A stretch of 64,000 bases of DNA from an uncultured Christensenella sp. GTDB lineage: Bacteria > Bacillota > Clostridia > Christensenellales > UBA3700. How positions within the stretch are numbered: the stretch's first letter is position 1; every line of letters starts with the position of its first letter. Both the position numbers and the translations under genes were made by a program. The stretch covers positions 15,280-79,279 of the forward strand of contig CAJTNA010000004.1 in the NCBI GenBank assembly GCA_910577845.1. Direction: 5' to 3'. Below the pieces are notes generated by a model. That model worked only from the letters and a program-made list of their open reading frames with translations. It was not told where the DNA came from and did no database searches. This document shows positions 1,521-5,876 of this stretch, piece after piece.

Positions 1521-2036
1521 ATGATTTTATCTACAGATAGATTGATATTAAGAGAAATTACTTTGAACGATTATGATGATTTGTGCGAGATTTTGCAAGA
1601 CAAAAAAACAATGTACGCTTATGAACACGCTTTTTCAAAAGAAGAGGTAGAGCAATGGCTTAATAATCAGCTTTCAAGATATAATAAGTATGGTTTTGGA
1701 TTGTGGGCAGTAGTACTAAAGTCTACCGGGAAAATGATTGGCAACATAGGTCTAACATATCAAAAGTTTGAGGATAGCGATATTTTAGAGATTGGGTATT
1801 TGCTAAACAGAAATTATTGGCATAATGGATATGCAAGTGAGGCAACCATAGCTTGTAAAAATTACGCTTTTGAGGTATTGAAAGTAGATAAAGTATATTC
1901 TATTATAAGGGAAAATAATCTATTGTCACAAGCAGTGGCTAAACGTAATGGTATGAAAATTGTGGGGACGCAACTAAAACATTATTATAATATGGATATG
2001 CCACATTTAGTTTATATGGTAGAAAATAAAAAATAA
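1521..2036 (+). CDS. GNAT family N-acetyltransferase (RimJ/RimL-like)
   Basis: LILREITLNDYDDL start, acetyl-CoA-binding-type segment GKMIGNIGL, and NYWHNGYASEA, typical of RimJ/RimL-type GNATs. A terminator follows the gene. Confidence 0.8.
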   Translation: MILSTDRLILREITLNDYDDLCEILQDKKTMYAYEHAFSKEEVEQWLNNQLSRYNKYGFGLWAVVLKSTGKMIGNIGLTYQKFEDSDILEIGYLLNRNYWHNGYASEATIACKNYAFEVLKVDKVYSIIRENNLLSQAVAKRNGMKIVGTQLKHYYNMDMPHLVYMVENKK

Positions 2037-2108
2037 TTACAAGCAGATTTAAAACACTATTCTCTTTTAAAAGTTAATAATTAAAAAACAAGCAACATTA
2101 TAAACAAA

Positions 2109-2138
2109 CAAGATACCAGTTGGTATCTTGCTGTTTTT
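2109..2138 (+). terminator. intrinsic terminator after the GNAT gene
   Basis: Stem CAAGATACC/GGTATCTTG followed by CTGTTTTT. Confidence 0.7.
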
Positions 2139-2235
2139 AATATTGATTTTATGTTAAAATAAATTTGTCTAAATGAAAAAGAAATTATTGTTTTTAATAT
2201 TTTTTGAACTATTATTTTTATTGTATATGGTTTTT

Positions 2236-2340
2236 TGTGACGTACTTTAGGTAGACTTACTTGAATACCACAAAATGCGTCAACATAAGCCTAACATAAT
2301 CCCTAATGCATTGGTAAGGTTTGATTATCAAAAATTGTAT
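2236..2340 (+). repeat. intergenic repeat copy A (~105 nt)
   Basis: Aligns along its whole length with copy C (5025-5130), roughly three quarters identical by eye. It has the internal half-repeats GGTAGACTTACTTGA and GGTAAGGTTTGATTA. Confidence 0.75.
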
Positions 2341-2616
2341 TTTGTATAAAACATTTTTAATTAAAAAATCTTTTAAGTTAAATTTTATTGTATTTTTATA
2401 TAATGTCAAACTTACGTGTTTTTGTTAAGCAATTGTTATTTTTATAGTGAATGGTGAAGTAAGTATATTTAAAGTTGAAAAAACAACTTTTATATTAAGC
2501 CAACTATTGGCTTAATTAATTGTAAATTAGTGGCATAAACCAACAAGGCAAAATGATAAATTTTACCTTGTTTAGTTATTTGTAAAGTTAAGATTTAGTA
2601 AAAAGTCGAATTTTTG

Positions 2617-2648
2617 AAAATACCCACCGAAAATCGGGGGTATTTTTT
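2617..2648 (+). terminator. intrinsic terminator-like hairpin upstream of the inverted-repeat element
   Basis: AAAATACCC(A)CCGA-AAA-TCGG-GGGTATTTT, about 13 bp with one bulge, then TT. The loop carries the GAAAATCGG motif. Confidence 0.6.
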
Positions 2649-2679
2649 GATAAATGTGCTAAATTATGTAAATTGAGGG

Positions 2680-2702
2680 TACATAGAATACATATATCTA
2701 TG
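2680..2702. repeat. left arm of a perfect 23-bp inverted repeat (candidate inverton boundary)
   Basis: TACATAGAATACATATATCTATG. The exact reverse complement lies at 2833-2855. Confidence 0.9.
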
Positions 2703-2718
2703 TACATATTATATGAAT

Positions 2719-2748
2719 ATTATCTAATTAAATATATACATTTGTCAA
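2719..2748 (-). promoter_or_regulatory. sigma-A-like promoter inside the IR-bracketed segment, pointing away from the 2879 gene
   Basis: On the minus strand: TTGACA (complement of 2743-2748), an 18-nt spacer, then GATAAT (complement of 2719-2724). Confidence 0.55.
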
Positions 2749-2832
2749 GTATAAGCTAAACAATTTGTAAAATGATAACATTAAATTGACTTTAGCTTTA
2801 CAAAAACATAGCCGAAAAGCCTAATTTATGTG

Positions 2833-2855
2833 CATAGATATATGTATTCTATGTA
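2833..2855. repeat. right arm of the perfect 23-bp inverted repeat
   Basis: CATAGATATATGTATTCTATGTA, the reverse complement of 2680-2702. It ends 8 nt before the AGGAGG RBS of the 2879 gene. Confidence 0.9.
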
Positions 2856-2878
2856 TCTAAAAATAGGAGGTTTTTGCT

Positions 2879-4687
2879 ATGAAAATTAGTTTGAAAAAGG
2901 TTGGAATAATTGTTTTATGTATAGCCTTTTTTAGTCTTACAATTTATTGTTTAAATTTTAGCGGTTTGTCATTAGTTGTGTTTGATAATAACAATATAAA
3001 AACTGAATTAAATATAAGCAACACAAATGATATTGGCAAGTTGCCAGTTGCAGAACAAGAAGTAACGTTGACTTGCGATTGTCCTAATGGTGAGGCTTGT
3101 ACTTGTGGTAAAATGGCACAAGATTGGTCTAAAGCTGTAACAGAATCAGTAACCTCAAAACAAGTTGTGAAAGTTACTTTGGGAAGAGATTGGATAGCAC
3201 AAATTGATGAGGACACTCACAATAGTTTTTCTAATATGGGAAATTATGGTTTTGCAAATGGTAGAATAAATATAGATTATGGAGCAATTATTATTTTAGA
3301 TTTAGCTGGGTATTCTATTGATAGACAACTGACTATTGAACAAAAGTCAGAATATGGAAATGTTATAAGAGTAGCTGGTACATTAAATTTAATTGATAGT
3401 AGCTATAATGAAGAGCAAGTAAAAGAATATTATGAACAAGGAAAAATTTTGGAATATGAGTGCGGTAAGATAACTGGTGGCTCTCGTGACCATAATACCT
3501 GGGGTGGTGGCGGTATACTTATTGAACAAACAACTGGTGTATTAAATATGTATAGTGGAATGGTTACAAATAACTATTCTCGCATTGGCGGTGCTGGAAT
3601 CTTTTCATATGTTTATTCTAAAATGAATATTTATGGTGGAATAATTTGTTCAAACTCTTCTGAAAATGGTGGCGGAATTTATTGCTCAAGTGGTAGTGAA
3701 CTAAATATTAATGGTGGTTATATCATTGATAATACAGCAAGTAAATGTGGTAGTGCAATCTCAGTATATAGTGCTAAAGCAAATTTGACAAATTGTATTA
3801 TTGAGGATAATGCTATTGAGCAAAATGGCGGTACAGTAAATGCTACTGGAAATTCTAAATTGCAATTATATAGTGGGGTAAAATTTAAAAATAATTTATC
3901 AAATGGCAATATTAATGATATTTATCTGCATAATAATTGCAAAATAGAGTTAAAGGAAAATATTAGCAATTATGATATGTTATCAGTAGATTTTGGTAAC
4001 GGGTATAATTTGTTTGCACCATTTACTTTTGGTTACAAGTATTATGCTAATGGTGATAACAATCCACAAAATCATTTTGTACTATCATCAGATAATAGTA
4101 AAAAAGCTGTGCTATATGGTGATGAAGTTCGATTTGATTATTCAATAAATAGTGAGTATGACTTTGCTTATATTGAAAATTCTGTTCGTAAATATTACCA
4201 AGATAATGATAGATTACACGATTATAATGATACTACAAATTATGTGCTAGCTAAAATCACCCCAAATACCTCTATAAATGAGTTTATTAGTAATATTAAG
4301 GCGTTTAATTTAGGGGATGTAACATTATATGATAATAAGGATAATATTGTTTATCAAAATGGAAATGCAGTTAATGTTGAACTAAGCAATAACGGAATGG
4401 AGCTTGCTGTTGGAACTGGTTGGTATATAAATTGTCAAAATGGAGGTAAAGCTGAAAGAATTTATTTGTCTGTTTTAGGGGACTTAACTGGTGATGGAAA
4501 AGTTAATTCAGCAGACGTAAATTATTTAAGACAAATCATAAATGATAATACTATTTTTGAAAACTCTAGCTTGGCAGTTAAGTTGAGTATGATTATAAGT
4601 AACAAAGGTAACGCAATAGAAAAAGCAGATGCAGAGATATTGTGGAATGTAGCTTGTGGCAGAATAGATATATCAGATTTTATTTGA
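2879..4687 (+). CDS. secreted/anchored parallel beta-helix repeat protein with a C-terminal dockerin-like module
   Basis: AGGAGG RBS and an N-terminal hydrophobic signal/anchor (IIVLCIAFFSLTIYCL). Cys-rich motif CDCPNGEACTCG. Repeated GGG(I/L)/GGAGI/NGGGIY beta-helix-type repeats. GDLTGDGKVNSADVNYLRQII is a dockerin/EF-hand-like Ca-binding repeat; the second repeat is degenerate. Confidence 0.8.
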   Translation: MKISLKKVGIIVLCIAFFSLTIYCLNFSGLSLVVFDNNNIKTELNISNTNDIGKLPVAEQEVTLTCDCPNGEACTCGKMAQDWSKAVTESVTSKQVVKVTLGRDWIAQIDEDTHNSFSNMGNYGFANGRINIDYGAIIILDLAGYSIDRQLTIEQKSEYGNVIRVAGTLNLIDSSYNEEQVKEYYEQGKILEYECGKITGGSRDHNTWGGGGILIEQTTGVLNMYSGMVTNNYSRIGGAGIFSYVYSKMNIYGGIICSNSSENGGGIYCSSGSELNINGGYIIDNTASKCGSAISVYSAKANLTNCIIEDNAIEQNGGTVNATGNSKLQLYSGVKFKNNLSNGNINDIYLHNNCKIELKENISNYDMLSVDFGNGYNLFAPFTFGYKYYANGDNNPQNHFVLSSDNSKKAVLYGDEVRFDYSINSEYDFAYIENSVRKYYQDNDRLHDYNDTTNYVLAKITPNTSINEFISNIKAFNLGDVTLYDNKDNIVYQNGNAVNVELSNNGMELAVGTGWYINCQNGGKAERIYLSVLGDLTGDGKVNSADVNYLRQIINDNTIFENSSLAVKLSMIISNKGNAIEKADAEILWNVACGRIDISDFI

Positions 4688-4756
4688 TAGATAAAAGTTA
4701 AAAAACAAACTAAATTATTAGAATAAGTTTTTATTAGTATTTTTAATTTAAAATGT

Positions 4757-4858
4757 TGATGTGTAGAGGGCTTAAGATAGGCTTGCTTGGATGCTAACAA
4801 AATGTGTCAACGAAGCTCACCAAAATCAGATTTAATAAAGATAGGCTTGATTTGTTAA
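4757..4858 (+). repeat. intergenic repeat copy B (more divergent)
   Basis: CTTAAGATAGGCTTGCTTGGATGCTAACAAAATG...AAAGATAGGCTTGATTTG has the same architecture as copies A and C. Confidence 0.6.
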
Positions 4859-4918
4859 TAGTAATATAATTAAATAAAGCATTTATTAAAATTAAAACTG
4901 AAAAAAAGACCTTAAGCA

Positions 4919-4951
4919 AACAAGGTGCTAAAACAGCACCTTGTTGTTTTT
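4919..4951 (+). terminator. intrinsic terminator downstream of the beta-helix gene
   Basis: 11-bp stem AACAAGGTGCT/AGCACCTTGTT with loop AAAAC, then GTTTTT. An A-run precedes it, so it could act in both directions. Confidence 0.8.
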
Positions 4952-5024
4952 AAATATGATTTTAAATTAAGTTTGGATAATTAAAAATAAGTTGTTATTT
5001 TAAGATATTTTGGTTATTATTTGA

Positions 5025-5130
5025 TTGTGACTGACTTAAGGTAGGCTTGCTTGAACGCTACCAAATTCATTTACACAAGCCAATCTAAATTCTTTATGCA
5101 TTGGTTAAGGTTTGATTATAAAATATTGTT
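5025..5130 (+). repeat. intergenic repeat copy C
   Basis: TGTGACTGACTTAAGGTAGGCTTGCTTGAACGCTACC...GGTTAAGGTTTGATTAT is collinear with copy A. Confidence 0.75.
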
Positions 5131-5202
5131 TTAATTTTTTATTGAAAAAAGGCAGGACAATTTTAATACAAGTTTATTATTTGTTTAAAGTTCAGCAATT
5201 GT

Positions 5203-5685
5203 TTAGTGTTCATCTTGCTTTGTTTTTTGTTTGGTATTAATATTTAGGCAATGGATAATTATGCTATCTAATATTCGATACACACAGTAGATTAACCAGA
5301 TTATCCAAGTTAATTGCCATTTTTGAGTAATTAAGCTGATTGTAATGTAAAGAATAGCAACTAAAATTGCAATTACCCAATTTGTAATTTTTTTATGCTT
5401 TGCTATAGTGTGGTCACTTTTTTTTAATGCAGATTTAATATTTTCCTCAGATATAGCTCTGTAATCACTTTCACTAATTCTCTCACCATTTAAAATTTCA
5501 TTTATGCTAACCTCAAAAGTGTTTGAAAGAATTTGCAACATTTCTACTGGTGGTAAGTAATTTCCATTTTCCCATCTAGAGATAGTTTTGTTTGTAACAC
5601 CTATTTTTTCGCCAAGTTCAGCTTGAGTTAAATTATGTTCTTTACGCAGGGTTGATAAAAAATTGCCTATTTTTTGCATATCCAT
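5203..5685 (-). CDS. XRE-family HTH regulator with a C-terminal membrane domain
   Basis: HTH LRKEHNLTQAELGEKIGVTNKTISRWENG, followed by two hydrophobic segments (WVIAILVAILYITISLI and WIIWLIYCVY). Confidence 0.8.
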   Translation of the reverse strand: MDMQKIGNFLSTLRKEHNLTQAELGEKIGVTNKTISRWENGNYLPPVEMLQILSNTFEVSINEILNGERISESDYRAISEENIKSALKKSDHTIAKHKKITNWVIAILVAILYITISLITQKWQLTWIIWLIYCVYRILDSIIIHCLNINTKQKTKQDEH

Positions 5686-5876
5686 AGTAATTCTCCTAAG
5701 TTCATCTTAATTTTATACTTTAATTATACCACATTACTTTACAAAATAATTGCCCACAAAAAGCGAATTTGTTTTTAAATAGTAGTTTTTTAGTAATAAT
5801 TATTGCAGTATGGTAAAGAAAATTAGCAGTCTAATGGGCAGATTGCTAAATTTTTGAAAAAATTTGCAAAAAACAC

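Follow-up and report, generated by a model that had tools for sequence, protein, structure and literature searches.

Background

Intergenic palindromic repeats such as the REP/BIME, ERIC, BOX, RUP and bcr1-type elements occur at tens to hundreds of unrelated sites in bacterial genomes. Stem-loops located in the 3' untranslated region (UTR) or at the 5' end stabilize transcripts in low-GC Firmicutes, and the 'positive retroregulator' of Bacillus thuringiensis cry1A and the 5' stabilizers of ermC and aprE are examples of such messenger-stabilizing structures. Surface-gene families controlled by invertible promoters (invertons) are represented by the Bacteroides polysaccharide loci and by the cwpV and flgB switches of Clostridioides difficile. 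Here we describe a locus in a 64-kb stretch of DNA from an uncultured Christensenella species (hereafter the window), where three copies of a hairpin-bearing repeat, termed A, B and C, accompany a gene for a 602-aa surface protein. Sequence comparisons give good support to the view that each of them represents a boundary module belonging to a family of surface-protein cassettes that is multi-copy and probably phase-variable. Such a cassette appears to combine a variable β-helix/dockerin-like gene with a predicted invertible promoter and a conserved leader, in which lie a hairpin, H2, and two terminators, T3 and T2. The module is found at the upstream edge of the cassette and, in zero to three tandem copies, after the gene.

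Like the REP/BIME, ERIC, BOX, RUP and bcr1 repeats, the module presents a ~100-nt non-coding imperfect palindrome that often lies 3' of a gene and varies in copy number, and its hairpin would, like theirs, be co-transcribed as a stem-loop. Unlike these repeats, it is found only beside one gene family and is embedded in a longer terminator-spacer duplicate. With the cry1A, ermC and aprE stabilizers it shares a long, stable hairpin that lacks a U-tract, lies after the stop codon or near the 5' end, and is associated with a gene of the highly expressed surface- or secreted-protein kind; it differs from them in that several copies lie beyond a terminator and in that the window copies fold weakly. 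The integron attC sites, including the Vibrio cholerae repeats, are comparable as imperfect palindromes of 55-140 nt that follow a gene in its own orientation and are similar within a genome, but the module has neither the R''/R' cores of attC nor an integrase or attI nearby, and its cassettes are scattered and carry their own promoters. The inverton-controlled families share with the present one a pair of inverted repeats (IRs) around a promoter directly upstream of a surface-protein gene, repeated at paralogous loci, whereas here the hairpin repeat is distinct from the IRs and is located beyond the segment that they enclose. No published counterpart of a terminator-spacer-hairpin module accompanying invertons was found. 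With no Rfam match, no dispersal, no attC cores and neither terminal inverted repeats nor target-site duplications, the module is outside every described family, and is best filed as a lineage-restricted palindromic intergenic repeat associated with a gene family. By analogy, its hairpin would work most like a REP/BOX-type or UTR-stabilizing stem-loop.

Results and discussion

The repeat as part of a terminator-spacer-hairpin module

All three copies lie on the + strand, and their hairpin cores are given by the alignment of all copies: A at 2236-2340 (hairpin core 2246-2299, tail 2300-2340), B at 4757-4862 (core 4772-4825) and C at 5025-5130 (core 5036-5089). The order of elements at the locus is a GNAT gene (1521-2036), terminator T1, a spacer, A, the leader, the IR pair, the ribosome-binding site (RBS) with the 602-aa open reading frame (ORF), B, terminator T1', a second spacer and C. 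The start codon of the surface-protein gene is 540 nt 3' of A, and B follows its stop codon (4687) and precedes T1', a position presumed to belong to the 3' UTR. A profile search (nhmmer) of the window recovered exactly A, B and C (E = 2e-23 to 3e-26), and cmsearch with its filters off placed them at 72-103 bits, with everything else in the 64 kb at noise level. The repeat search detected direct repeats of 88 nt with 73% identity between A and C (2235-2322 vs 5025-5112) and of 56 nt with 71% identity between B and C. The mean column identity of the three-way alignment is 79%, and a 20-nt core motif occurs twice as against 0.02 occurrences expected from shuffles. No conserved ORF over A, B or C was found among the window ORFs or on comparison of the copies. 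A preliminary description of this DNA had noted three same-strand, non-coding repeats, and this is borne out in full, these being the sole copies in the window.

The same description gave the length of the unit as ~100 nt. Copies A and C do align over this length, but it understates the homology between them, which extends over ~300 nt (2067-2398 vs 4886-5187, E = 2e-29). As this region includes the homologous terminators T1 and T1', the repeat unit is best described as a ~300-nt module rather than a 100-nt element; in it T1 is followed by an AT-rich spacer of ~90 nt, then by the imperfect hairpin of ~54 nt and lastly by a tail of ~35 nt. T1 (2109-2140, +), found on both strands by a terminator scan, is a predicted hairpin, CAAGATACCAGTTGGTATCTTG, followed by a T-run; its homologue T1' (4919-4955, +), AACAAGGTGCTAAAACAGCACCTTGTT with a T-run, was found by the same scan and opens the second full module. 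These are the only T1-type hairpins in the window (starting at 2108 and 4920). The first spacer (2141-2235, +) contains a block, AAATTATTnTTTTTAnATATTTTTTGAAnTATTAT, that is conserved in an alignment of six modules, and the second (4956-5024, +) shows an 18-nt deletion relative to the A module. The entire T1-spacer-hairpin block is alignable at six loci, the T1' sequence also precedes the copy at the related loci L002 and L031, and the T1 stem covaries across loci (GATACC/GGTATC vs GGTGCT/AGCACC). Downstream of C a further ~55 nt are homologous to the sequence after A, ending at 5187, just 16 nt before the stop codon of a convergent XRE-HTH gene (5203-5685, minus strand).

Copy B is 57-69% identical to every other copy and 67-69% identical to its own orthologue, as against 88% for C and its orthologue. 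It has four substitutions per 106 nt across strains, and its tail is replaced by a second AGATAGGCTTG motif; B thus looks like a decayed copy. The two related half-motifs that had been proposed for each unit are significant in B, with a score of 13 against a shuffle maximum of 10, because the second AGATAGGCTTG overwrote the B tail, and are at chance level in the other 15 copies. Their interpretation as a direct repeat for protein binding was therefore rejected.

A 25-codon ORF, MKKKLLFLIFFELLFLLYMVFCDVL, with a signal-peptide-like sequence, spans the spacer and the beginning of copy A (window ~2174-2251). It is interrupted in L002, L003 and L010 and is probably a by-product of the AT-rich sequence. 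The possibility of a hidden peptide was rejected, as the small ORFs of the module are not conserved (the 25-aa spacer ORF; tails encoding MHW and a stop versus a 12-codon ORF).

Phyletic distribution and genomic context

Related loci totalling ~277 kb (206,713 + 69,854 bases) were searched, or ~340 kb in all together with the window. Further copies were found: 17 distinct copies are now available within and beyond the window, contributed by the window species with its strains and by no fewer than two related genomes. Every one of them lies within ~700 nt of a homologue of the 602-aa gene (or of its leader) and on the same strand, at least 10 of the 17 being downstream of the gene. A degenerate 21-nt pattern run against 185,579 species genomes retrieved two real loci, both with family genes and both in the metagenome-assembled genome (MAG) 'uncultured Christensenella sp. 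MGBC120187'; the other two matches were unrelated. Two scans of JGI metagenomes and one of viral contigs yielded only chance matches inside coding regions. Protein searches returned only about 40 homologues, and the lineage is therefore a rare one; the samples with homologues include mouse gut, and Candidatus Coproplasma is the label of some of the proteins.

The layout of the window locus recurs, with variations, at unrelated loci. The product of the family gene in L003, 689 aa long, is homologous to that of the window ORF (34% identity, E = 2e-48) and near-identical to it at the C-terminus; the locus has one copy upstream and two downstream; its upstream copy is followed by the same leader and IRs, as in the window. 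In L002 the T1' terminator, a spacer and a copy precede the same leader and left IR. L010 and L011 have a copy between two tandem family genes and a decayed copy after the second, L013 has one downstream copy between two T1-type terminators and an upstream remnant that lacks the hairpin center, and L019 has a single copy downstream. Strain variants of A, B and C are found in L007 and L023-L030, L025 being 100% identical to the window throughout the 4.2 kb that were compared (1521-5700). In a sister species, in which the HTH protein is 92% identical, the gene and three downstream copies adjoin the same HTH-ctsR genes; since the contigs of this species break off within the gene, the comparison covers the HTH-ctsR side. 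No synteny with the window locus was found in the next relatives beyond the sister species.

The tandem family genes of L010 (1-6486) encode proteins of 1172 and 674 aa; each gene lies behind its own IRs, and a T1-spacer-hairpin-leader module separates the two, so that the cassettes form a natural tandem array.

Base pairing and covariation of the hairpin

The 6-bp stem of the preliminary description is the middle of a 22-bp imperfect hairpin. Some of its details required adjustment: in A the motifs GACTTA (2254-2259) and TAAGCC (2286-2291) are present but pair at only five of six positions, A2255 and C2290 being mismatched, and in C the corresponding motifs are at 5044-5049/5076-5081, one base to the right of where they had been placed. 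The identical 32-nt spacing and the compensatory A-T/G-C change were correct, and the latter is the best-covarying pair of the family (AU in 10 copies, GC in 5).

Pairing was evaluated on an alignment of the 17 distinct copies with the 22-pair structure. The 22 pairs are formed in 81.6% of cells, and sliding the 3' partners by 1-3 columns lowers this value to 15.8-40.8%. Changes on both sides occur at five pairs, 23-52 (AU 10 / GC 5), 28-47 (AU 11 / GC 4), 30-45 (CG 9 / UG 4 / UA 2), 31-44 and 13-62, and RNAalifold independently predicts the central 11 pairs. Within the strains, the A2255G polymorphism (L023/24/27/28) restores the pair with C2290 in A, and T5084C improves a pair in C. One copy, L003c, has a near-perfect palindromic core, TTTAGGTAGGCTTAC-TC-GAACGC-loop-GCGTTT-AC-GTAAGCCTACCTAAA, and the apical loop, UACAAAAU, is well conserved among the copies. 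The z-scores of the minimum free energy reach -6 to -9.6 in the best copies, those of the sister species. The base pairing of the hairpin has been maintained through substitutions. The suggestion of a structured RNA family is in this respect upheld, by the 22-bp stem, the additional copies and their covariation, but there is no sign that RNA is the functional form.

None of the Rfam families matched copies A, B or C: the window has no match to Rfam 15 at the gathering thresholds, and none with E <= 10 overlaps them. The best-folding copies, those of L031 and L003, gave only sub-threshold matches to generic hairpins (mir-77 at 25 bits vs 83, STnc400 at 26 vs 80). Assignment of the hairpin to the + strand on the basis of wobble pairs was rejected.

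Copy-number variation and spread of the module

Comparison of orthologous loci shows how the number of copies changes. Window copy C has the T1' and spacer context of sister-species copy 2, and a tail like that of copy 3 (37/38 identical positions, against 21/39 for copy 2); its 3' stem arm also matches copy 3 better (23/27 vs 19/27), and the 170 nt that lie between sister copies 2 and 3 are absent from the window. Hence C looks like a fusion of two sister-type copies, a structure that unequal recombination between direct copies would leave as its expected remnant, or that would reflect the converse duplication in the sister lineage. Similarly, L003 has two downstream copies (89% mutually identical) where its 91% identical orthologue L019 has one, with the upstream flank replaced. 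Tandem neighbor copies are each other's closest relatives, and the indels fall within homologous copies; neither target-site duplications nor precise element boundaries were found at any indel between orthologous loci. These comparisons show, at the level of sequence, that the module is inherited with the cassettes and that its copy number varies through recombination between copies and not through transposition. Spread of the modules by segmental duplication and homologous exchange is likewise well supported by the alignments. The non-coding flanks (module, leader and IRs) are 65-95% identical between cassettes, far above the ~35% of the proteins over most of their length, and are therefore kept alike by constraint or by conversion.

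The preliminary description had also raised the possibility that A and C delimit an inserted cassette. It is true that in other genomes, too, the repeats are found on either side of homologous surface-protein genes, at loci unrelated to that of the window, but they do not behave as transposon-like ends. A non-autonomous element of the miniature inverted-repeat transposable element (MITE) or REP type, with A and C marking the insertion of the 2.8-kb interval, would agree with the short, palindromic form of the repeat and with its differing copy number between close relatives. We nevertheless regard this as very unlikely: there are three copies in 64 kb, all beside family genes, and none away from family genes in ~340 kb, a distribution that in the (incomplete) genomes available is not the dispersal of REP, ERIC, BOX or MITE elements. 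Conservation continues beyond the palindrome on both sides, running well into the terminator and spacer, no target is duplicated at the edges of the indels, and blastn against the PLSDB plasmids and INPHARED phages gave no match. Furthermore, the sister species has the gene and downstream copies beside the same HTH-ctsR genes.

A second possibility is that the palindrome is a DNA site, recognized by a recombinase that duplicates, excises or moves cassettes, in the manner of attC or of a recombination hot spot. Its attC-like size, its position after genes and in their orientation, sometimes in tandem, the occurrence of cassettes at many unrelated loci and the strand symmetry of the pairing data (see below) would all suit such a site. 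Yet the arms TTTAGGTAGGCTTAC and GTAAGCCTACCTAAA, present in all good copies, contain neither of the attC cores RYYYAAC and GTTRRRY, and an integron attC was rejected on this ground. No integron integrase or other recombinase is found beside any locus among the Pfam-annotated neighbors, each cassette carries its own promoter, and the indels at orthologous loci take the form of homologous exchange and not of precise excision. This explanation therefore appears quite improbable.

Functional predictions for the hairpin

Given that copies are either downstream of the gene (at least 10 of the 17) or, like A, separated from the ORF by ~540 nt with two terminators and a separate, invertible promoter, a classical riboswitch or 5' leader is ruled out. 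On the best reading, the hairpin is neither a riboswitch, nor a proven small RNA, nor a transposon-like insertion boundary.

We tentatively favor, with somewhat less than even confidence, an action of the hairpin in cis on transcripts, as a stable stem-loop that insulates the switch together with the terminators. The A-type copy has T1 on its upstream side and T3/T2 on its downstream side, and the B-type copy lies between the stop codon and a T1 terminator. Copies between a stop codon and T1, such as B, L003a/b and L031 copy 1, would lie in a 3' UTR, whereas those after T1 and a spacer, such as A, C, L002 and L010up, would be near the 5' end of a short transcript starting in the spacer; at A such a transcript would stop at T3/T2, before the invertible promoter. 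In both positions the stem-loop would protect the RNA from exonucleases, and the hairpin and the three bidirectional terminators would insulate the switchable promoter. The copies of the window species, B above all, would be decaying. Consistent with a start in the spacer, promoter-like sequences are seen in the spacers before A (TTGTTT-16-TATTAT, with the -10 at 2210-2215) and before C (TTGTTA-17-TATTAT, 4992-5020), and a conserved TATTAT with TTRTTT 16-17 nt upstream precedes the hairpin by 10-30 nt in A, C, L002, L010, L013 and L031 copy 2. B and the copies of L013 and L019 are followed by a terminator at a distance of 60-200 nt, whereas C is not.

Several observations weigh against this proposal. 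The covariation score of 0.158 (0.126 shuffled; reached by one of 500 shuffles) speaks for the pairing, but the shuffle control ignores the relatedness of the copies. Copies A, B and C have z-scores of -1.06, +1.66 and +0.24 over 116 nt, like those of shuffles, and their hairpin cores alone have z-scores of -0.5, -0.6 and -2.4. With 23 G.U cells as against 28 A.C cells, and with equal folding energies on both strands, the counts do not distinguish one strand from the other or RNA from DNA; a DNA palindrome fits these strand-symmetric data equally well. Compensatory changes in palindromes can also arise neutrally, by template switching or conversion between arms (quasipalindrome mutagenesis). 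There is no sign of purifying selection: copy C, 88% identical to its orthologue, looks by eye no better conserved than the adjacent intergenic DNA, and B is only 67% identical to its own. The spacer promoter is a weak consensus match in AT-rich DNA, promoter-like sites in this region being no more frequent than in shuffles (32 vs 29.1). Finally, the module is not essential: a copy is missing from four cassettes of the family that have the leader and IRs (L008/9, L014, L021 and the L012/L020/L022 flanks).

Many of these points would be expected if the copies were neutral relics, that is, left-over 5' edges of cassettes or products of unequal crossing-over with a functionless palindrome, in which pairing persists through the youth of the copies, gene conversion or hairpin-templated repair. 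We consider this, the main rival, unlikely on balance, while giving it appreciable weight. The module between the two tandem genes of L010, the decay of B and of L010dn, the upstream remnant of L013 without a hairpin center, the shuffle-like folding of the window copies, the absence of strand bias and the cassettes without copies all point in this direction, as do the downstream copy of L013, which shares ~45 nt of leader with the upstream copy L003c before a terminator cuts in, and the L008 gene, on either side of which the T2 motif, a different piece of the leader, is repeated in place of the module. On the other hand, the flanking modules are 65-90% identical next to proteins with ~35% identity over most of their length, which implies that something keeps them alike. 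In addition, a double substitution in one MAG preserves pair 28-47 (A-U in L003c, G-C in L032 copy 2), and the three tandem modules of the sister species would require three separate cassette losses.

An independent small RNA, transcribed from a spacer promoter at the T1-preceded copies and acting in trans, for example to coordinate switchable cassettes, is rather improbable. The promoter-like sequence conserved ahead of the hairpin in six copies, the bracketing of the L013 copy by terminators ~180 nt apart and the well-conserved apical loop could be understood in this way. Against it, most copies have no terminator directly after them, and between C and the convergent HTH gene there is none; the T1-spacer block is missing from B-type copies; and neither an Rfam family nor an excess of promoter-like sites over chance density was found. 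Pairing of the inner hairpin loop with the leader, inverton or RBS was examined and rejected, the best duplexes being no better than those of shuffled loops and their sites differing from locus to locus.

The module might alternatively be a dedicated device, either a recombination or capture site for duplicating and moving cassettes, or a 3'-UTR RNA signal through which an ON cassette acts on the identical element in other leaders, giving coordinated or mutually exclusive expression; this too we hold to be improbable.

Leader, predicted invertible promoter and gene of the surface-protein cassette

The chromosomal segment that forms the window has a low GC content (~31%), and almost all of its genes are on the + strand; the neighbors of the cassette are NUDIX, GNAT, XRE-HTH and ctsR-mcsAB-clpC genes, the order 3' of C being the convergent XRE-HTH gene followed by ctsR-mcsA-mcsB-clpC. 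A reading of the repeat as a binding site of the XRE-HTH protein was rejected: this protein has >1,700 close homologues, its neighbors in L033/34, from the more distant genus examined, include neither a family gene nor a copy, and it is thus not specific to the cassettes.

The conserved leader (2341-2649, +) was defined by an alignment of eight cassettes and by motif counts. The leader alignment delimits hairpin H2 (2495-2515, +) and, along with the terminator scan, T3 with its U-tract (2543-2571, +) and T2 (2620-2649, +), which includes the invariant motif AAATCGGGGGTA (2631-2642). By the scan three of the terminators are largely bidirectional. T3 covaries between cassettes (window 2543-2571, L010 ~4125-4170, L013 ~4665-4700, L021, L008 and L014), with the arms CAAGGCAAAAT, CAGCCTAAAAT, CAAGACAAAAT, CACTCTAAAA and CACACTAAAT, each with its complement, and this covariation is far stronger than that of the hairpin repeat. 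The motif AAATCGGGGGTA, which forms the 3' arm of T2, is invariant in 8/8 cassettes even with an altered 5' arm; with the changed arm L008 still pairs via three U.G, and in L014 the pairing is lost. It recurs 3' of the gene in L008/L009, which is thus flanked by direct repeats of another leader piece (L008 5754-5765 and 8030-8041). In L023/L024, 6-8 substitutions are clustered at window 2648-2666, between T2 and the left IR, in a region otherwise 99.5% identical, which suggests a short gene-conversion tract from another cassette.

The predicted invertible promoter (2679-2856, no strand assigned) is enclosed by 27-nt IRs at 2679-2705 and 2830-2856, whose exact 21-nt core (2682-2702 / 2833-2853) occurs twice against an expectation of 0.00. 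Between them lies a sigma-70-like promoter on the minus strand, TTGACA (2748-2743) and GATAAT (2724-2719) separated by 18 nt, so oriented that the assembled state is predicted to be OFF, with the promoter pointing away from the gene. Corresponding promoters are kept between the IRs of paralogous cassettes (TTGACA-18-TATAAT in L014, TTGACT-18-TATAAT in L008). IRs flanking a promoter beside the gene to be regulated are thus found at 2679-2856, an architecture like that of the invertons in two surveys (PMC11602134, PMC11892184). The same IRs at several paralogous loci suggest a single trans-acting recombinase. No flipped inverton was found among the assembled copies, in which at least eight paralogous cassettes with the same IRs and promoter have one orientation. 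The contigs L007, L012, L015, L016, L019, L020 and L022 begin only 18-126 nt ahead of the gene, those of L027-L030 stop at window 2622-2647, and many metagenome and Logan contigs break at the IRs or T2. These breaks would fit either mixed inverton orientations or a collapse of the assembly graph by the multi-copy leader.

The surface-protein gene itself (2879-4687, +; 602 aa) belongs to the family beside which the repeats are found. Its product has a signal-peptide-like N-terminus, a repetitive β-helix-like middle and a dockerin-like C-terminus, the match to Dockerin_1 being sub-threshold (20.9 bits vs the cut-off of 22.9), and some homologues carry PF00404, PF13229 or PF02415. In L023/L024 (7358-9165) a 1-nt deletion at window 3192 splits the gene into ORFs of 104 and 498 aa. 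The gene appears to be dispensable or pseudogenized in a part of the population.

Conclusions

The repeats at the edges of a cassette would explain the breaks of assemblies at these loci. The more interesting biology is that of the accompanying cassette, and the finding has no bearing on any long-standing open question. If the hairpin is functional, it would be a compact, portable cis element tied to phase-variable surface proteins of uncultured gut Clostridia (Christensenellales-like), and such elements would help in understanding how messengers are stabilized, and invertible promoters insulated, in low-GC anaerobes. Even without a function, the module is a marker for the borders of a multigene family in rapid rearrangement, with zero to three copies per locus, fusion of copies and frameshifted alleles.

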